A DNA stretch of 64,000 nucleotides from Felis catus. Its lineage: Eukaryota. Shown one piece after another: positions 4,837-62,392 of the stretch. A program made the translations under genes and the position numbers. The first letter of the stretch is position 1. Each line of letters begins with the position of its first letter. The stretch covers positions 101,930,001-101,994,000 of the forward strand of contig NC_058368.1 of the NCBI RefSeq assembly GCF_018350175.1, given 5' to 3'. The notes beneath the pieces are model-generated. The model worked only from the letters and a program-made list of their open reading frames with translations. It searched no databases and was not told the origin of the DNA.

Positions 4837-5063
4837 TTTTTTTTTTTAATTTTTTAAAATGATTTTTATTTATTTTTGAGACAGAGAGAGACAGAGCATG
4901 AACGGGGGAGGGGCAGAGAGAGAGGGAGACACAGAATCAGAAGCAGGCTCCAGGCTCTGAGCCATCAGCCCAGAGCCCGACACGGGGCTCGAACTCACGG
5001 ACCGCGAGATCGTGACCTGAGCCGAAGTCGGACGCTTAACCGACTGCGCCACCCAGGCGCCCC
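4837..5063 (-). mobile_element. Young felid SINE
   Basis: Near-consensus body, perfect TSD tagattctagatattct on both sides. Confidence 0.97.
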
Positions 5064-8852: not shown

Positions 8853-9255
8853 GGGGCGCCTGGGTGGCGCAGTCGGTTAAGCGTCTGACTTCAGCCAGGT
8901 TACGATCTCGCGGTCCGGGAGTTCGAGCCCCGCGTTGGGCTCTGGGCTGATGGCTCTGAGCCTGGAGCCTATTTCCGATTCTGTGTCTCCCTCTCTCTCT
9001 TCCCCTCCCCCGTTCATGCTCTGTCTCTCTCTGTCCCAAAAATAAATAAACGTTGAAAAAAAAATTTTAAAAAAAATAAAATTACACATCAGGGGCGCAT
9101 GGGTGGCTCAGTTGGTCTGACTCTCGGTTTCGGTTCAGGTCACCATCTCATGGTTTGTGAGTTCAAGCCCTGTATCTGTCAGTGCTGAGCCTGCTTGGGA
9201 TTCTGTCTCTGTCTCTCTGTCTCTCTCTCTCAAAAATAAACAAACATTTTTTTTT
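8853..9255 (+). mobile_element. Tandem pair: young felid SINE (8853-9080) followed by older SINE (9092-9255)
   Basis: Two SINE heads and bodies; TSD aaaattacacatcagg around the first. Confidence 0.95.
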
Positions 9256-12820: not shown

Positions 12821-13218
12821 AGATCTTCCTACTCAAATGCCTCCAGAGTACCTATTTTGTGAGAGGTAAAATGTCTAACTATAGGCCATCCTTATTTCAT
12901 AATCATTATTACACCTTGCAAGCTCTCTGCATCACAGAGGAGGAACTACATTTCCCAGAATTCCCTTCCCTCCATGATTCCAACTTAGTGGTTTTTACAT
13001 GACAGCAAGAGAGTGGGAGATGGAAGGATGGGCATGGTTCTCCTGAAACACTGGCAACCAGAAATATGGACAGTGATGACATTCACAGCAGCTTAGCAGG
13101 GAGTTATTGAGAACCAACAGCTTTATAACTTCAGGCTGATATCAGAGATCATTCTTCTGATCTTTGCTTCTCGGGTTCTTCCAATGTAAGCCTCCAACTG
13201 TTATATTAAAACCCGTCA

Positions 13219-13858
13219 GGGGCACCTGGGTGGCTCAGTTGGTTAAGCATCTGAATTCGACTCAGGTCATGATCTCACAGCTCATGAGTTCAAGCCCTGA
13301 GTCGGGCTCTGTGCTGATGGCTCAGAGCCTGGAGCCTGCTTCAGATTCTTGTCTTCCTCTCTCTCTCTCCCCCTCCTTGGTTCATGCTCTGTCTCTCTCT
13401 CAAAAATAAATATAAAAAAAAACTTTTAGGGGTACCTGTAGGTTCAGTTGGTTGAGCATCCGACTCGTGATTTTGGCTCAGGTCATGATCCCAGGGTCAT
13501 GGGATAGAGCCCCATGTCGAGCCTGTGTAGAGTTCTGTGCTAAGCATGAAGCCTGCTTGGGATTCTTTCTTCCCCTCTCTCTGCCCCTCATCCTGACTCT
13601 CACTCTCTCTCTCAAAAACAACAAAAAATCCTTGGGGCGCCTGGGTGGCGCAGTCGGCTAAGCGTCCGACTTCAGCCAGGTCACGATCTCGCGGTCCGTG
13701 GGTTCGAGCCCCGCGTCGGGCTCTGGGCTGATGGCTCAGAGCCTGGAGCCTGTTTCCGATTCTGTGTCTCCCTCTCTCTCTGCCCCTCCCCCGTTCATGC
13801 TCTGTCTCTCTCTGTCCCAAAAATAAATAAACGTTGAAAAAAAAAATTAAAAAAAAAA
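13219..13858 (+). mobile_element. Three tandem SINEs (13219-13422, 13429-13628, 13634-13858)
   Basis: Three consecutive heads/bodies/tails; third is youngest, with TSD aaaaaatcctt. Confidence 0.95.
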
Positions 13859-14503
13859 TCCTTTATACCTGAGACACAAAGAGTAGGTTCTGAGTTCTTC
13901 ACCAAATCCCGAATATGTGCATTTTGCATGTGATATTTTTATTTCATCACAACCTCTCTTAATCTTGTACCAGATGCAAAAAAACGGAGGCATAAAAAGT
14001 TGTTGCTCTAGATCACAATCTACGACCAGGGGTTGATCCCTCGAGCCTATGCTGATTCTGCTTCAAGTGGAGGAGTGTTTGGGGAAAAATGCGGAGGCAG
14101 TTGGGCTAAGTGAGAAACAAGGTCACAATCTCCTAGCAATATCATTAACAGTGTGTGGGTACAGAAGCATGAGACGATGGCAAATGTACTGACCAGCCAT
14201 GTACTAAAATATCAAGGGAATGAGAAAATGACAACTCTGGTTTATCCCTCAGTGACCCAAGTTGGTGCTCGAGAAAGTCATAGTTTCATTGGGCAACTGT
14301 TTAGCCCTCTGCACAAATCAGGATGAAAAATGTTGCCTCGTGTTAGCCACTGTAAATTAGCTATTTCATTATGTTTTACTTTCATATTTTTAAAGGTCTC
14401 CCAATCATTTTTTATTGCCCATTCAATTACAATAAACCCTTAGTGGGTAAATAATCCTTCTTCTGAAAGGTATTTATAGCAACATGTTCTTTTCTGGGCT
14501 TAC

Positions 14504-14679
14504 CCAGACAAAACAGTGGTTTTTACTAAAAGTCCTTGGTCACTCAGTCAAATGCATCGTTCAGCCCACAGTGCCGAGTAACCGTGCAGAGAAGCCGGCC
14601 TCATACATAAGATCAATAATAACTCTAATGTACTCTGTACAGGCAAGATTGGGTACTTCCTTCATGAAAGACTAAAAGA
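14504..14679 (-). other. Candidate noncoding exon (176 nt)
   Basis: Minus strand: branch-like ctaac, gctcttctttttacag| acceptor, tgg|gtaagc donor; no through reading frame. Confidence 0.35.
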
Positions 14680-16206
14680 CTGTAAAAAGAAGAGCATTAC
14701 TGTTAGCCAGCACTTTTATTCTTGTTTTACAAGCAATATGCAATTTAATTTGGATTTAACTTCCCCATTCAGTAATCTGTAGTTCTTTCAGAATGCCAAC
14801 ATGAAGGAAATGGCAAATCAGAAGAGTCTGGTAAATGTGCATTTTAAACATAAGGCAGGCGTTATTAGATTCACCATGTGTCCAATCTTTGTTCTTGGTT
14901 CATCGGGCCACGATTCATGTCAAATCATTTATCTTATTTTTATTTCAAGACTACAACTGATACGTGATGCAGCTTAGCAGTTAGAGAAAATGATCAATAG
15001 GCCTCCTTAGCTTCTGATGAATGGGTGCTAATATAAAAATAGAGCAAAATCAACAACTACCACAGCATATACAAATAGTGATCCAGAAATGTAAGCCCAA
15101 TCCTGCGCCTGTTTCTGGGAAAGAGGGCAACGATTTGATGAGAATCTGTATTTTCCTGCCTGGGGCTTCTGATTTACAAGTCAATTTCTATTCTTAATTT
15201 ATTTTCTGATAAGGCAGGAGATCAGTACTATATTTTAACCAGATTGTGTCGTAGAGGTTTTTAAACCTGTTTTCTCTACGTGTCTAATTTGAGGTTAATG
15301 GGTGCTTTGGTTCAACGAGGGTGTCTAATGTCTCTTGTTCCCATTTGGCAAGCCAAACGTTCGTTTGGACCACAATTTGTCAGATGATTATAATCTGCTT
15401 ATATCCATTCAGGTGGCCACTGAATTGCCCACAATCTGCACCATTCATCAACTTGCCTTCTTGGTTGTTAAGGGAACTGAAAACATCAGCTCAACTATTT
15501 TTTTTCCAATCTGGTGTTTTTCATGTTTCCCCCACTTTCATCATGTTAGTTAATTTCTCTGTTTTTGCATTCACTTTTCCACTCATGGTGGAAAAATACA
15601 TCGGAGTTTCATCATGACCGCGATTTTTTTTAGCCTGCATAAAAACCTAGCTGTGTCTTTTAACCTGACCTTGACAAGGAGACTACTCAAATTTTCACAG
15701 TGAGAGATGTAGGTGGGCTCCAAAAAAACAGGCTAGTTCGGTAGCATGAGAAATGAAAGTGGAATCAGTTGCCTCTTTACCAACCAAAATTATGTCTATG
15801 TATTTCCACTATCTTCATCTATATCACACTTAGTGGAAATAAATACTTAAGTAAATACTCATAATCACTATAATATTCCTGAGGACTGTGGCTCTGTCTT
15901 CACAGATAAAACTAAGGAGAATGCTGGGCAATTATCCCACGGGTTTCATTCACAAAGACAAACGTGTAGGAAAATGTGGCCAAAGTCATATGGCTTTGTC
16001 CTCAATTAAAAAAAAAAAATGTCTTTTCTTTAAATCTTTTCAATCTGTTTTTTTAATAGTAATCCAACAAATATTTAATGGGTACTTAATTTGTTACAGG
16101 TTTTTAGATATTCAAAAGATAAAAACCACCCTGAAGAAATTCTAGAAATGGGGATTCACACAGTGAATTCAATCCCACGCCTCCTCTTCATTCCCTACCC
16201 ACTCAC

Positions 16207-16235
16207 CAAACTGTACCACTGAACATGTGACACCT
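16207..16235 (-). other. Candidate 29-nt microexon
   Basis: Minus strand: cttcctgtatttttcatag| ... ttg|gtgagt. Confidence 0.2.
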
Positions 16236-17289
16236 CTATGAAAAATACAGGAAGCTATATAAATTACAAAATACACTCACGATGTCTTCAGCTAAGTGGA
16301 AAAAGTATGTACATTTTCCAAGAGAGAAAAACAGATTCAAAGTATATGGCTATCGCCTTCAAGGGACAGGAGTCACTATACCATCCAGGTCATATGTACC
16401 ATACCCCGTACCAAGCTATTCCCCCCTGTATATTCCGGCAAAGACAAGAGACGCTAAAAAGCTTTGATGAAGACAAGGACAGAATATCGTGGAGGTATAC
16501 AGAAGAACCAGCTAAACAATAAGACCGTCTAAGACTCCCCGCTTCAGGAGGAATGAATGTCCTCCCTAGCAAAATCTTTTCCCTGATCAAGAGACTGGAT
16601 CTCTAGGAGACAGTGGCAAGAAATAAGCTGTGGGCATTCACTTACTAAATGTTTGCTCATCATTTATTATTCATTGGACATATGTTCAATAAATATTTCC
16701 TGAGTATCTCTCATGCGCCAGGCATATGGCATTTACCAAGAATCCCTTATATGCCAGGTAATGCGTAAGTATCAGGGATTCGTCTATGTCCTTGGGAAGG
16801 AAACTGAAAATTCTAGGAAGAACTTCAAATCCATTCTTTTCCCCCAGTCAATGATGACCCAAAGCCTTCTAATTTCTGTTTAGGGAAGCCACACCCATTT
16901 TCTTGGGGTCAGTTTCCCAAATACTCCGTGGGGGAAAAAAACCCTTCCCATTATGAAAATTATACATTAAAGAAGTCAAATTGGTTATTTCCAGCTTGTA
17001 AACCACTGTTAAAGAAAAAAAGAACACCCCAAGCCTAGGGCAAATCCTAGGTGACACCTAAAAATGGAACTATTTCTGGCAGAGGATATTGAGAAGAAAC
17101 CACAAAGAAGGTAAATTTTTTGATCACCTTTGTCTCTACAGTACTGGAAACTTGTGGAAGCAAAGATTTCTCACTAAGAAAAGGAAAACTGTGAGTTGTT
17201 TCACTTAAATGAGATGAAATTTTACCTGAAAGGACTCCTTTTTCCTTTTTGAGAATTTAATTTAGGAGGCTGTTAACCCCTCCGGTATC

Positions 17290-17380
17290 AGATCTGGAAC
17301 TACCTGTAGGCACCCCCCTGTGGAAACACCGAGACAGGATATACAAGTCTCATAAAGATATAGATGTACATGCAATGGCT
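17290..17380 (+). repeat. Left arm of 91-bp inverted repeat
   Basis: Reverse complement of 18516-18606 with 6 mismatches and no gaps; flanked by ctccggtatcaga / ctccagtatcaga. Confidence 0.97.
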
Positions 17381-18515
17381 CCAGTATCAGACGTACACAT
17401 CTCGTTAAAACCACCCTGAAATTTGCTGTGAGCAATGAAATAGATCCCAAGACCAGGAAAATAGTTCAGCTATGTGACCAATCTAAAATACACACCAGGT
17501 AACAAAGAAGAAGATCCGGTCTTAATTAAAAGCAAATACCCAGTTTCCCTCTCCTATTTTTCTATATTTGCTTCTTCACTTAGTGTTTCAAAGTAGAAAC
17601 ACTTTTTTTCTACTTTCAAAGTAGAAAAACTCAGCTAGAGTTTCAAAGTAATTTTCTGATTTTCTCCATTAAGATTTCTCCTCTGTTTTTCTTTCTCCTC
17701 CTTTTTCAGACAGGTTGTCATGAGTTTGGAAGCTACTGAAAAGAGCTTAGCTCCATTAAAAAATCAACCCAACTCCCTGCTTCTCAAATATTTGATAAGA
17801 AATGTTGCCTGTGTTAAGTCTATAACATATAAATTTTTTGGAGGATTATACTATACCAATTATACTGTTCCTGATTAAAATTGTAAAATGCTTTGGGGCA
17901 ACTATGTTCACATTTCACATAAAAGCAAATAGGTGTACAAGTCAGAAATTTAACAGGGGCTTGGAACAACACATTAAAGAAGGAATCGTTCCTTGTGATT
18001 CAAGGTCATGTCCTGTTTTTTATAAATAGAATTCATTTAAAGTGATGTAAATAGCATACACTTCATGTTATATAAAGCAATGAAATATCGCATACACCTT
18101 GTATCATCTGTCTATATTGAATTTTTGCTATTTATTTCTACTAATGACATCTTTGCCAAAGGGGCAAAACAAGTTTTAGAAATGTTCACTACATTGGCAT
18201 AGCCCCTAGACATCTGCTTTTCATAATCTTGTTGCCCTACGTTATCACCAATCTCTGAAGTACATTTTAGCCAGCGTTACTGTCTGTTATGAACAACAAG
18301 AACGTGAGGCCCAGATCGGGCAGGGGGTGGCAGGAAACCGCCTTGGTTATCAACATTTCCATAGTCAAAGCGTGCTTGCTGAATTTGCTTCTTCCAGAGC
18401 TGACCACACTTCAGAATGGCACGCGGTGACCCAAGAGTTCTCTTCCCACTTTTGGGGTCTCTCCTATTTGCAGAATCTAAAACTACAGGAGAAGAGCAGA
18501 CCCATCTGGATGCAC

Positions 18516-18606
18516 AGCCACTGCATGTACATCTATATCTTTATGAGACTTCTGTATCCTGTCTCCGTGTCTCCACAGGAGGGTGCCTACAGGTAGTTCC
18601 AGATCT
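18516..18606 (-). repeat. Right arm of 91-bp inverted repeat
   Basis: Base-by-base alignment to 17290-17380; also visible as shared peptide PLHVHLYLYET...VSTGGCLQVVPDL in opposite-strand ORFs. Confidence 0.97.
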
Positions 18607-19121
18607 CAGTTATGCAAAGAAAATGCATTCCTTTACCACAAGCACTCACACTGCTTGTAAAAGGTCCTCTCTGGGAAAGAGGCACTGGAGAGATTGTTAA
18701 AAGTGAAGATGAGTTAGTGCGCTGACGGGCAGAATAGAAAGAATAAGACAGGCATATTTTAGCTTTGACACAATCCCAGAGGAACGGAACAAAAGGGAAG
18801 CGGGGTGGGGAGTGAGACAGAAAAGGAGGGAAATCGTGTGAGGGTTCCAACAGTTCCCTGTCTACCCTTAGAACAGGGGCAGGCGATTTCCCAAATGGGA
18901 CGGAGGTTCTCAGAGAGGCCTTACACACTACTGTGTCTCAAGATTGTCTGTAGGAAAGGAAGACAAAGGACAAATCCGATGGCTCCTTCTCATTCAGTGA
19001 TTCCCTCCGATCCAAGTCTGCCCTTTGGAACGTCCATATCCTTCTATTTATCTATTTGCCTCTGGGCTGTTTTGGGTAAGGACTGCATGAGCTAGAGGCC
19101 CCAGGGCGCTAATTTCGCCAG

Positions 19122-19132
19122 TGCGCATGCGC
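19122..19132. promoter_or_regulatory. NRF1 consensus motif
   Basis: tgcgcatgcgc with both CpGs intact. Confidence 0.35.
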
Positions 19133-19174
19133 CATGACCAACACTGCGTGAAGGGTTTCTAAACCTGCACTCAC

Positions 19175-19260
19175 CTCTGCAAAACTAGTGACATTTATCT
19201 CCAGGGCTACACCAGCAAGCCAAGCAAATGTGTGCATCTAGAGTAGTGCCGAAATTGGCC
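19175..19260 (-). other. Candidate noncoding exon (86 nt)
   Basis: Minus strand: cttactctttgtacag| acceptor and gag|gtgagt donor; stop codons in all three frames. Confidence 0.4.
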
Positions 19261-19437
19261 CTGTACAAAGAGTAAGTCTAGAATGAGAAAGCTGATCACC
19301 CAAGGGAGGATCACTTACTCCCTCCTTTGTGTTTTTGTAGCACCTGATATATGCCAATATTATGATTTTAACCCACTGAATCATAATTAGTTATTTATAT
19401 GTCTGCCTCTCCCCCAAAAGACCGTGAACTCCTTAAG

Positions 19438-19574
19438 TAGGGCGACCTTACCTCGGGATTTGACCGAGTATTGGTTTCACTCCGTTCAGATCAGTTAACA
19501 CCGGACAATTATTTTAATTCCCTCTTTCAATGACAAAGGGTCCAGTTTGGATAATGAATTACAGGATTACCATA
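19438..19574 (+). mobile_element. MER81-like hAT MITE inserted in an L2 3' end
   Basis: taggggcgacc...caattattttaattccctctttca...gtccagtttggataatgaattac resembles MER81; L2 text resumes on both sides. Confidence 0.65.
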
Positions 19575-21231
19575 CTCATACGACAGAGGCCACGTCTTAC
19601 TCAACATTCAACGTACCTGAGTACCTACTGTCACGTCTGGATCTTAACACGTGTTCAAATAAGGATACAATAACTTCTTCTAAAAAAGAGGAAAGAGTGA
19701 CAAGATTGAACACCTGAAATACTCTGCAACGTTAAAACGAAAAAGCAAAGACATCGACAGTATTTGCTAAATTAAGAAATGCCATTGGCTTCCCAGAATT
19801 TCATGGATGGGAGGCAAAAATGTTAAGAGGTGAACCCATCACGGAATGTAGACTTCTGGTTTTGGTGACTGGGAGAGTTGCAAGAAGGAAAGAATACTGG
19901 TTGATGAATAAACAATAAGAGGTCCCATTTCCTCAGTGGTAATTCTGTAGCAGCCATTGGGCATTTCACCCGCTGGCAAACATTTGAAGTGCTCAGCCAG
20001 TAAGTATTCTCTGATTTTGTTTGGAGTGGAAATGTGTCCAACCAAAAATCTCCTAATTTTCTAGCTTCCATTACAAGGGATGGCCATGATATGCAGTAAT
20101 AGCCTCTGAGACATAGCAGGAACCAACTCAAAAGATTTTCAGAAAAGGAGACGTTACCTCCTTCTCATTTAACCAGTAGTAATGCACACAGTCTCGCAAC
20201 CAAAAATATTAAACACACACTGGTAGACGCCCCGCTCCCATGCTGCCAAATTCCATGCTTATCATGTTGTGACAAATGAAACCCTAACTGTTCAAGCCAA
20301 TGTTACTTGCATTTCTGTTGCCAACACAATTTCCAACTGACATTTTAATTCCTCCAATACCCCTGTGGAGTGGAATTATATGAAATTTTGACCTACAAAA
20401 GTAGTAATTTCATTCACTCATTCATTCATTTTTCGACATCTATTTAAGAGATATTTATTGAATGCCTACCATGTGCCAAGCATGGACACACGCTAGTCAA
20501 CTGGAAAAACAGTGGCTCTTAGTTTCAAATATATCACCCAACTATTACTGTTTAGCCCCCCCAATTCATAAAACTCAGTGACGGAACTAGTGAACCACAT
20601 GAAAAGGATAATTACTTGAGGAGGAGCCATACATGATTAAGATGAAAATTATACAGAAAAATTAATTTAAACCAAACAGATAATTTCCTTTTAACATTAA
20701 TATGTGAGCAACTGGAAATTCAGTATCCTGTACTCTGAGTTTTACAAAGTTCAGAAAGTTGGAACTGCATAAAAATAAGGAAAATAGATTAGGACAATTC
20801 TTCTAACGGCCTGCAGTTTAAAAAGAAAATGCTACAATTCCGGATCCATCAATGAGGTGCTTTAGTTCCTGTACGATTTCTCTCAAAAATGTAGGCCACG
20901 GACTTGGGACACCAGCTTCAATCTGAATTCACACGCAAGTGATCTTTTTCGTTTGCTTTATTGCCAAGAACAACCAGACTTGGCAGGAAGCTCTGACACA
21001 CAAGGGTTAGTTCCCAAACGGTACCAAACGTGTCTTCTAAGAACTGTGGTCCGATATTCTAATAAGGTTCTTATGGGGGAAAGTAACAACTCTTGATTTA
21101 AGATCTCAAAGCCAAAACATCAGCAACAACAAAAAGAGTTCTTGAGTTCATTTTTTAAAACTTTTATAAAACTAGAAGAATTTCTCTTTATTGTTTATTT
21201 TTTTGTTTTTCTTAACATTCTTTCTTCTGCA

Positions 21232-21411: not shown

Positions 21412-22105
21412 TACTGTTTCTTCTACAAAATCTTGATTTGGGAAACAAAGTATACTTTCCTGACATGTACACAGAATGAATACTCTAATGGTTCAGGAGA
21501 TAAAGCAATAATTTTGAGATTTAAGGACTAGAACATTTAACTTGAAAAATGGAAAGAAAAAGCAGTTTTGTGACCTTTTCATAGAGATTCTGTGACGATT
21601 ATCTAATAAGATCACATATTGTTTTGTCTTTGCAACTAGAGGGCCTAACCCCCCCCCCCCCCCCACACACACACACACACTGTCACTGAGAATACTGGAG
21701 ATTTTCACTAAATACATGTCTATCGGTTAGCTAATCCCAACCACCAACACATGATAAGAATCTACTGTAGACAGCATGGGTGTTGAAATACCTCTTTCCC
21801 GAGGACGCTATGCTTGTATAGGTGCTTTCTGGTTTAGCTGAAGTTATTAGCTTATCAAAAAAGTACTCATCACTTCTGAGAGGAGCTACTAAACAAAGGG
21901 CACCTGGGGTTCTAGTCCGCCGGGACACCATCTCCAAAGCAAACCTTATGTCCCGCACACAAGAGCCTGAGGAACCCATGATCCTGTCCGTGTCGGGCAG
22001 CATGACTGTTTTCAGGATGAAACCCCCAAAGGAATAAGAGGTAACAGCAACCGCAAACGATCACATACTAAAGAAATTAATTTTTTCAAACAATTATCTC
22101 ATGCT

Positions 22106-34659: not shown

Positions 34660-35680
34660 TGGACACTTGCTTTTGCCTCCCCAGCATCTATTCTCCCATT
34701 CTGGACAAGCAGGCTCCAAAATTTCACTGTATATCCAGCCATTTCCTATGCTTAGGCCATCTGTTTGGACAGGGCTCTATGCTCAGCTCCGGGAAACGAA
34801 CAATGTAGCCAAGCCCTGCCATGCTAAACGCTTCATGCCACAGGACACAAAGTGGTAGGACAGGCATGCCTTGAGACCGCAGAAGTGCGCTCTTTAGGTC
34901 CAAATGCCCGCCAACTGATGAATGGATAAAGAAGATGTGGTTTATATACACAGTGGAATGCTACTCGGCAATGAGAAAGAATGAAATCCCACCATGTGTA
35001 GCCACGTGGACGGAACTGGAGGGTGTTATGCCAAGTGAAATAAGCCAGTCAGAGAAAGACAGACACCATATATGTTCACTCAAACGTGGACTCTGAGAAA
35101 CTTTACAGAAGATCACGGGGGAAAGGAAGGGGAAAAAATAGTTTCAAACAGAGAGGGAGGCAAACCCACAGGAGACTCCTAAATAAACAGAGAACAAACT
35201 GAGGGTTGATGGGAGGCGGGGGAGAGGGGACAATGGGTGAGGGGCACTGAGGAGGGCACTTGTTGGGATGCGCATTGGGTGTTGTATGTAAGCAATGAAT
35301 CACCCCCAAAACCAAGAGCACACAGTACATGCTGTCTGTTAGCTAACTTGACAATAAATTATATTCAAACAGGAAAGAAAAGAAAAGAAATGTGCCCTTT
35401 AAACGATCTTTAACCTGAAGGGTTGTATATGGAAGAGCCAGTAAGGGCTTACCACCAGAGCAAGAGAAATGTATGACAAGGAAACCAATACAGGGCAAAG
35501 GGAGCTGAGATCGGAGAGAGATGAACAGGACCCTAACTGAGCCCCTGTGACATGTGCGGGCTGGACCAAAGTGAATTCCAAATTCATGCCAACTCAAATC
35601 TGCAATCACTACTTTCCTGTTCTGTTTTTGAGCCTGTGTAGACTGGCTTTTCTGTAACTTGTAATAGAAGGAATCTTAAT
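34660..35680 (+). mobile_element. Old MaLR LTR (MLT1H/J-like) split by an L1 insertion
   Basis: gcctccccagcatctattctcc start; ttttgagcctgtgtagactggcttttctgtaacttgtaatagaaggaatcttaattgaaa end. Confidence 0.6.
34899..35390 (+). mobile_element. 5'-truncated carnivore L1 (end of ORF2 and 3' UTR)
   Basis: aaatgcccgccaactgatgaatggataaagaagatgtggtttatatacac...ctaacttgacaataaattat plus A-rich tail. Confidence 0.95.
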
Positions 35681-41330: not shown

Positions 41331-41748
41331 CTTCCTATGGATGCCGTAAGAAATGACCAAACGCCTGAGGCCTTTCAAATGGTAAGAATTTATTTTCGCT
41401 TAGTACTGGAGGCCGGAAGTCCAAAATCAGGGTTTGGGTAGGGCTGTGCTTCCTCCGGACGCTGTAGGAGAGAATCCTTCCTTGCCGCTTCCAAATCCTG
41501 CTGGCTCTTGGTGTTCCTCCACTCAGGGCAACATCCCTCCAGCCTCTGTCTGTGTCTTCACATGGCCCTCTCCCTGGGTTTCTGCATATAGACGCCAGCC
41601 ACTGGATTTACAGCCCAACAAAATCCAGGACGGTTTCGTCTTGAGCCTCTTGATGACTTCTACCAAGACCTCATTTCCAAATATGATCATATTCTGAGGT
41701 TCCAAAGCAGGCCTGAATTTGGGAGGGATCACCGTTCAACCCACTACA
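41331..41748 (-). mobile_element. MaLR LTR (MLT1B/C-like)
   Basis: gaatttattttcgcttagtactggaggccggaagtccaaaatca...attctgaggttcc...gttcaacccactaca. Confidence 0.9.
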
Positions 41749-43016: not shown

Positions 43017-43645
43017 GGTACATTAATCAGTCTGCCAGGGCTGTCATGACAAAATACAACAGACTGAATGGCTTAAGTGATGGAAATTTATTTTCTCACA
43101 GTCCTGGAGGCTAGAAGTCCAAGATCAAGATGTTGGCTAAGGCTGGGTTCCCGTGAGGCTTCTCTCCTTGGCTTGCACATGGCTGCCTCCTCTCTCTGTC
43201 CCCCATGGATTTTTCTCTGTGTGTACATCCCCAGCATCTTTTCTTTCTTTTCTTAAAGTTTGTATTTTAATGTTTATTTTTGAGAGAGAGACAGAGCTCG
43301 AGTGGGGGAGGGGGCAAGAGATATTTAGAGGAAGACACGGAATCCAAAGCAGGCTCCAGGACCTGAGCAGTCAGCACAGAGCCTGACGCGGGGCTCGAAC
43401 TCACGGACCGTGAGATCATGACCTGATCCAAAGTCAGACACTTACCTGACTGAGCCACCCACATGCCTTCTTTTCTTATGAGGACACCAGTTCTAGGGCA
43501 CCACCCTCATGATTATCATAATTTAACCACAACCTACCTATAACCATGAATACCTTCTTAAAAGCTCTATCTCTAAATACAGTGACACTGGGAGTTTGGG
43601 TTTCAACAATTCTGGGGGCCGGGGAACATAACTCAGTCTACAACA
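43017..43645 (-). mobile_element. MaLR LTR (MLT1A-like) interrupted by a minus-strand SINE at 43240-43468
   Basis: aatttattttctcacagtcctggaggctagaagtccaagatcaag; tcttatgaggacaccagt; SINE body between. Confidence 0.9.
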
Positions 43646-62127: not shown

Positions 62128-62392
62128 TTTTTTTTTCTTTTTCTTTTTTTTTTTTTGCTGTTTTATTTCTTTATTTAAAATTTTTTTAATATAATTTATT
62201 GTCAAGTTGGTTAACATACAGTATATATGGTGCGCTCTTGGTTTTGGGGGTAGATTCCCGTGATTCATCGCTTACATACAACACCCAGTGCTCCTCCCAA
62301 CAAGTGCCCTCCTCAATGCCCACCACCCATTTTCTCCTCTCCCTTGTCCCTGCATGTTACCCTCAGCAACCCCCAGTTTGTTCTCTGCGGTT
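62128..62392 (-). mobile_element. Carnivore L1 3' end
   Basis: T tail, ataatttattgtcaagttggttaacatacag..., acaacacccagtgctcctcccaacaagtgccctcctcaatgccc. Confidence 0.93.

Follow-up and report, generated by a model that had tools for sequence, protein, structure and literature searches.

A 91-bp inverted repeat in the cat genome is probably a one-off templated insertion

Results

Setting of the locus

The window (the whole stretch of DNA that we analyzed, 64,000 nucleotides from Felis catus) is rich in tRNA-derived SINEs, which we take to be carnivore or felid SINEs. Its human counterpart is presumably the gene-poor region that separates CSNK1G3 from ZNF608 and contains a long non-coding RNA. 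Comparing the whole window to Rfam at the gathering score gave no matches. Against Pfam, we ran 462 ORF scans, which comprised 12 long ORFs, 150 of the 192 ORFs of at least 40 amino acids at 9.9-26.2 kb, and 300 of the 304 ORFs of at least 50 amino acids elsewhere. No family reached its curated cut-off; five weak matches fell below it, all among the ORFs at 9.9-26.2 kb. (A 109-codon open frame on the minus strand, at 21734-22060, is protein-like; it has no Pfam match and no homologue among longer proteins.)

Near 17-19 kb lies an inverted repeat that had been proposed to form a long RNA stem or to drive inversion. Its parts are:

17290-17380, plus strand: left arm, apparently derived by copying; between its two junction overlaps lie 86 uniquely templated bases (17293-17378), and there is no poly(A)
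17381-18515, no strand assigned: spacer; 1135 bp, non-coding, without SINEs, with no net inversion and no splice joint seen
18516-18606, minus strand: right arm, the putative donor; its best flanking duplication (7/8 with a slip) is not significant

The inverted repeat is real

When we remeasured the arms, every figure in the original prediction held: 18516-18606, once reverse-complemented, is identical to 17290-17380 at 85 of 91 positions; the alignment is gapless, and the spacer is 1135 bp. In a self-BLAST of the window, the arm pair has E = 9e-33, and the identity ends at both edges of the 91-bp match. Just 3 of the 273 repeat pairs of at least 150 bases in the window are more alike than the arms. 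Once SINE-type and simple repeats are excluded, the only other long pairs in the window are two, with 78% and 80% identity. (These are 35188-35369 with 62184-62387, inverted, at 78%, and 41387-41446 with 43085-43145, direct, at 80%; from their resemblance, they may be the 3' end of an L1 and a fragment of an old LTR.)

The repeat is also present in sequencing data. A single contig from run X15 (17226-17472) includes the left arm and both of its junctions with no differences from the window. In each of 14 non-RNA runs, the fraction of sampled words from 14000-21200 that were present was 1.00 (8 of these 14 runs were flagged as possible sources of the window's DNA). The inverted repeat is therefore not an assembly artefact; it is real, and within the window its arms are of unique sequence.

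The six mismatches between the arms are four transitions and two transversions, which are unclustered and show no strand bias. They divide the match into identical runs of 26, 8, 4, 11, 1, 30, and 5 bp. In a minus-strand RNA, three of the six would become G-U pairs, as against one in a plus-strand RNA. These counts agree with the original prediction, which took the bias as suggestive. However, each transition gives a G-U pair on one strand or the other, so three of four on the minus strand is what chance would give (P = 0.31, one-sided), and the bias falls away as a signal.

Transcripts around the repeat

We compared 4 of the 24 listed runs (X15, X18, X24, and X21) to 15800-20100. X15 is a set of assembled contigs, which carry no strand, and its status as RNA was a guess at the outset. 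The transcript features are:

16100-16832, plus strand: spliced RNA, convergent with the minus-strand RNA; donor 13185 (GT) to acceptor 16100 (AG); AATAAA at 16688; cover ends about 450 bases before the left arm
19680-19710, minus strand: splice acceptor; pyrimidine tract with AG at 19681-19680; the upstream exon lies outside the window
17082-19679, minus strand: candidate non-coding terminal exon with both arms inside; X15 contigs at a depth of 2.7-5.5, with the strand taken from one junction

On the plus strand, an X15 contig has 28 loose bases before 16100 that are identical to 13158-13185, with GT after the donor and AG before the acceptor. Because of this exact match, we conclude that X15 contains spliced RNA. 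The plus-strand RNA (13158-13185 joined to 16100-16716 across a GT-AG intron at 13186-16099, with a depth of 19) looks non-coding, and the ATG ORFs in its last exon are at most 94 amino acids. At 16717, a CpG just beyond its AATAAA, about half of the X15 depth has a G/A difference, which is likely a heterozygous SNP.

On the minus strand, another X15 contig has 28 loose bases behind 19681, and these match nothing within the window. This sequence presumably belongs to the exon that is spliced onto the acceptor at 19679; its last bases resemble what we take to be the 3' end of an old L1 element. With a word length of 31, loose ends of 28 bases would be consistent with branching of the assembly graph at splice donors. 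X15 covers 2275 of the 2600 bases from 19681 down to 17082 (the piece at 17082-17235 was placed from bin depths). The longest ATG ORF in the candidate exon is 48 amino acids, and there is an ATTAAA at 17261-17256 on the minus strand. A gap of about 250 bases (roughly 16833-17081) separates the ends of the two convergent RNAs.

So, both arms likely belong to a single spliced minus-strand RNA in X15, where no one contig covers the two. The splice junction at 19679 and the tiled contigs from X15 speak for such a minus-strand RNA; against it, the two raw RNA runs (X24 and X21) contributed 0 genuine reads out of 34 (3 and 31). These runs come from unspecified tissues, and about 1.9 billion letters of each were sampled, or about 1-2% of the run. 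We rejected the 34 reads as signal because they were all partial and less than 95% alike, and most fell on a T-rich tract near 16020. Pieces from X18 are nearly identical to the window and cover neither arm. We took short loose-ended matches at 15895, 17680-17711, and 18615-18638 to be due to chance.

A 13-bp duplication brackets the left arm

Interval scans found a 13-bp direct repeat around the left arm, which was absent from the original prediction:

17280-17292, plus strand: first copy, CTCCGGTATCAGA; its last 3 bases (AGA) are the first 3 of the left arm
17379-17391, plus strand: second copy, CTCCAGTATCAGA, 12/13 identical; its first 2 bases (CT) are the last 2 of the left arm
18505-18517, minus strand: donor flank past the inner junction; weak gapped similarity to the 13-mer (9 matches in 14 columns), possibly an imperfect priming site, although not significant

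The one difference between the two copies falls at a CpG. If up to one mismatch is allowed, the 13-mer occurs in the window only at these two sites. None of 4,000 random 91-bp intervals matched the left arm's flanking-repeat score, and in an exhaustive scan, just 6 of the window's 63,609 91-bp intervals passed, all of which are offsets of the left-arm site. We also considered the right arm as the inserted copy. We rejected this because there is no significant flanking duplication there: the best, at 7/8 with a slip, was equalled by 285 of 4,000 random intervals. The right arm also lacks the 13-mer in inverted form (the best match is 9/13).

The left arm is likely an inverted insertion because the direct duplication brackets it and overlaps its ends by 3 and 2 bases. 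The inverted repeat, the orientation of its arms, the duplication, and the overlaps can be read directly from the window; from them, we infer which arm is new and that a polymerase made it. Our favored explanation, which we consider probable, is that the left arm is a one-off inverted insertion, templated by the right arm via a polymerase template switch, and that the RNA stem is a likely neutral by-product.

In the simplest reading of the sequence, 99 bases (86 templated and 13 duplicated) would have been gained at a site that formerly had a single 13-mer. The simplest course would involve a strand that was being synthesized from right to left. Its 3' end would stall or break at the target site and would then prime on a 2-base match (or perhaps on a longer, imperfect one) 1.1 kb behind. 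The polymerase would copy 86 bases of the right arm backwards and return via the 3-base match, 13 bases behind its point of departure, so that those 13 bases would be copied again. The arms would then have drifted apart by about 7%.

Two features expected from a template switch are present: the left arm is a reverse-complement copy of nearby sequence (85/91), and there is a direct duplication, as would arise if the return point lay behind the departure point (12/13, unique in the window). The microhomology at the switch points, of 3 and 2 bases, is short. A longer imperfect match between the donor flank and the 13-mer has P = 0.015-0.023 if unconditioned, or 0.08-0.11 given the 2-base overlap. 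There is no extended microhomeology at the other junction.

Comparison to known insertions

The closest parallel that we found is the "4 before 1" template switch of the four-point model, as described for great apes. In the available text of PMC7954356, these switches look like a single large insertion and leave one inverted repeat. As in our reading of the cat locus, nearby sequence is inserted in reverse complement, and a short stretch is duplicated where the polymerase returns. The reported lengths have a median of 12 and a maximum of 128, so the 86 bases here fall inside the range. However, the donor in those events adjoins the site, while here the putative donor is 1.1 kb off. The 1.1-kb jump exceeds the local, single-fork events of the four-point model, which counts against a template switch. 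Another parallel is small inverted triplications (DUP/IN/DUP), which, in what is available of PMC13334657, also have a direct duplication around an inverted templated piece and short homology at the junctions. There, the duplication is about 148 bp instead of 13 bp, and the inverted piece is a copy of the duplicated segment, which it is not here.

The patch could instead have come from RNA. That is, a nascent minus-strand transcript, which passes the donor before the target, might have served in cis as the template from which reverse transcription mended a staggered break. A snap-back onto the minus strand of the DNA would have the same geometry, and transcription of the locus likely runs in that direction. 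Also, according to the available portion of PMC5110952, experimental templated insertions are enriched for transcribed donors and are reduced by inhibitors of reverse transcriptase. The insertion polymorphisms described there resemble the left arm in being short templated patches with intact donors. Those of class 1 have target duplications, as here, and those of class 2 have microhomology at their junctions, as here. But class 1 insertions carry poly(A) and a TTTT/A context, which are absent here; class 2 insertions lack target duplications, which are present here; and the donors, as given in that portion, are distant, while ours is local. (Those insertions are polymorphisms, while the left arm is apparently old.) An RNA template also presumes transcription at the time of the event, and template switching on DNA needs fewer assumptions to explain the same sequence. 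We think that an RNA template is quite unlikely.

If a template switch did produce the left arm, then it would be a clean, readable case of a known type of mutation, with both junctions kept. As it stands, this matters little. More broadly, unique-sequence inverted repeats that resemble selected RNA stems may turn out to read as copying scars once their flanks are checked. We searched the literature by the names of neighborhood genes, and among titles and the starts of abstracts there was no paper on such a repeat. A scan of metagenomes with a 19-base motif from the arms hit two loci, which match over 20 bases only and are due to chance; the same scan of viral contigs had no hits.

The arms do not look like transposon ends

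Another explanation would make the 1317-bp unit a non-autonomous DNA transposon, or the arms fragments of a dispersed repeat that has gone unrecognised. The inverted ends would fit this, and in the comparison of 8 bp on the two outer sides, 5 of 8 bases match. But this was the best result: a clean outer duplication was found at none of the seven lengths, and the other six gave just 0-2 matches. The inner 13-bp duplication would account for the left arm alone. Because there is no clean duplication outside the 1317-bp unit, we do not class it as a DNA transposon. This outcome, together with the lack of any Pfam family at the cut-off among the ORFs in the spacer, bears out the original view that the arms are not transposon termini. 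As for a dispersed repeat, the 64-kb window has no third copy of the arm (the next match is 16 bp, with E = 0.17), and among 632 + 1082 million letters of contigs, none of those listed on the arms at 85% likeness came from elsewhere. Within the window and those contigs, then, there is no sign that the arms belong to a dispersed repeat. We consider this family of explanations to be the most improbable of those discussed here.

We also asked if L1 could have mediated the insertion. The target-site duplication is 13 bp, while class 1 of PMC5110952 calls for at least 5 bp, so the insertion agrees with that class in this respect. The insert has no poly(A) (the longest run of A is 3), no AATAAA on either strand, and no TTTT/A nick on either strand. 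Given the missing poly(A), poly(A) signal, and TTTT/A context, the insertion does not belong to class 1 as outlined in the accessible text, and we excluded an L1-mediated class 1 event.

Inversion and gene conversion

Inverted repeats can, in principle, support recurrent inversion of the spacer or gene conversion between the arms, or the repeat might be the scar of a past inversion. The arms are inverted, close together, and 93% alike, and the available text of PMC2583991 does report recombination on matches of under 50 bp, between alpha-globin repeats that are 5 kb apart. Nevertheless, the longest identical run here is 30 bp, as compared to the roughly 130-500 bp of uninterrupted identity that this source gives for non-allelic homologous recombination (NAHR). 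(In mouse cells, recombination fell 20-fold within the range of 134-232 bp, and 300-500 bp was estimated for human meiosis.) Also, the two 13-mers still stand in direct orientation on either side of the left arm; after a single flip by recombination between the arms, the inner one would lie at the right arm instead. Since the inner 13-mer is still at the left arm, there has been no net inversion in this genome. An inversion with staggered breaks would be expected to leave an inverted 13-mer at the far end, where the best match is 9/13. No joint with a switch of strand was seen in the four runs that we compared, none of which is a deep DNA run.

As for gene conversion, clustering of the mismatches has P = 0.14, and a perfect run of 30 bases is expected (P = 0.51). 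Because the mismatches are unclustered and the run is unsurprising, there is no sign of gene conversion. Overall, we consider an origin or a role in inversion or conversion to be very improbable. Recurrent inversion, which the original prediction had suggested, is unlikely because of the 30-bp limit on identity and the lack of net inversion of the spacer, and arm-to-arm conversion finds no tract in the spacing of the mismatches.

Age of the insertion

If the arms have drifted apart since a single template switch, then their divergence dates the insertion. The corrected divergence is 0.073 (Poisson range 0.026-0.15). The parts of PMC9290555 that we drew on give two rates per year, 1.54e-9 from cat-tiger divergence and 2.3e-9 from a pedigree. 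At the first rate, the insertion would be 24 My old (8-49), and at the second, 16 My (6-33). So, it probably predates the split of cat and tiger at about 12 Ma.

The RNA duplex may be incidental

The arms can pair in predicted RNA structures. The predicted duplex has -168 kcal/mol. In the predicted fold of the 2,454-nt candidate exon, 88 of the 91 arm pairs form, and the stem is in the predicted centroid fold of both strands. The stem in the minus-strand RNA is therefore physically plausible, and the original prediction of a long RNA stem agrees with these models on either strand. Among the window's 53 inverted pairs whose members lie within 5 kb of each other, the arm pair is 44th in duplex energy. 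Still, no other duplex in the window is as perfect (93%, gapless), and the candidate minus-strand exon contains only the arm duplex. (The strongest predicted duplex in the window, at -416 kcal/mol, is an inverted pair of young SINEs at 4837-5063 and 8853-9079, which are 3.8 kb apart and 90% identical.)

A duplex that arose by accident could have been co-opted. Specifically, a minus-strand long non-coding RNA might have the stem near its 3' end; the stem would close a 1.3-kb loop, be edited by ADAR, and affect the RNA's retention, stability, or 3' end. Several observations point this way: the minus-strand splice junction at 19679 with contig cover down to about 17082, the 88 pairs in the predicted fold, and the ATTAAA about 30 bases beyond the left arm. 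Also, the largest hole in X15's cover of the candidate exon (18418-18582, or 165 bases) takes in 67 of the right arm's 91 bases. In the sense of the RNA, that arm has 29 A, and heavy editing could cause such a hole. The hole could be due to low depth, filtering, or hyper-editing. A hole this large over one of the two arms has a chance probability of 0.15, and a hole by itself proves nothing. The spacing of the arms is near the usual range for edited Alu elements, given the partner distances in the available text of PMC4053975, where 78.3% of edited Alus lie no more than 1 kb from an inverted partner. As in those ADAR-edited Alu or SINE pairs, the duplex would be long and intramolecular, its arms separated by about 1 kb of the same RNA. 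Here, however, the arms are unique sequence, shorter (91 bp), and more perfect, and the duplex is a prediction.

Other observations weigh against co-option. The X15 contig over the left arm has no T>C differences, even at the A-C mismatch at 17342, although contigs show majority changes only. The A>G and T>C differences that we did find, at 17939 and 17196 in X15 and at 16530 in X18, all lie outside the arms. So, for the left arm and for majority changes, the check for A-to-G mismatches turned up no ADAR editing. The transcript itself comes from one run, with one junction contig and a depth of about 5, and the two raw runs had no genuine read. The G-U bias is not significant, and the divergence of about 7% is what drift would give. 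We therefore consider co-option to be quite unlikely.

The original prediction also raised effects of the duplex on splicing and back-splicing. We found no back-splice, exon skip, or splice-type loose end within 17381-18515 in the four runs (only one of which covers the spacer), and no exon in the spacer, so this idea gained no ground. What fits best is that the duplex is incidental, with arms that would pair in a faint RNA and no evidence of function. This corresponds to the outcome that the original prediction had named as its own refutation, an inert duplication, which is the best fit to our results.

A bolder scenario would combine several of these ideas: about 20 My ago, a break was mended from the nascent RNA or the DNA of the locus itself, and in a single step a long non-coding RNA of felids thereby acquired a near-perfect 91-bp duplex next to its poly(A) signal. 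The 5' arm of the duplex would now be hyper-edited, and selection would maintain the duplex. We view this as decidedly improbable. If it were true, template switching, instead of transposons, would have given rise to a regulatory RNA structure at a time that can be dated. If editing and conservation of the pairing held up, the locus would illustrate a dated, non-transposon route to a new double-stranded RNA element.

About 200 bases into the spacer, at 17582-17660, there are three tandem near-copies of TTTCAAAGTA and two short hairpins, with stems of 8 and 11 bp. The tandem copies are possibly a second, local scar of template switching.
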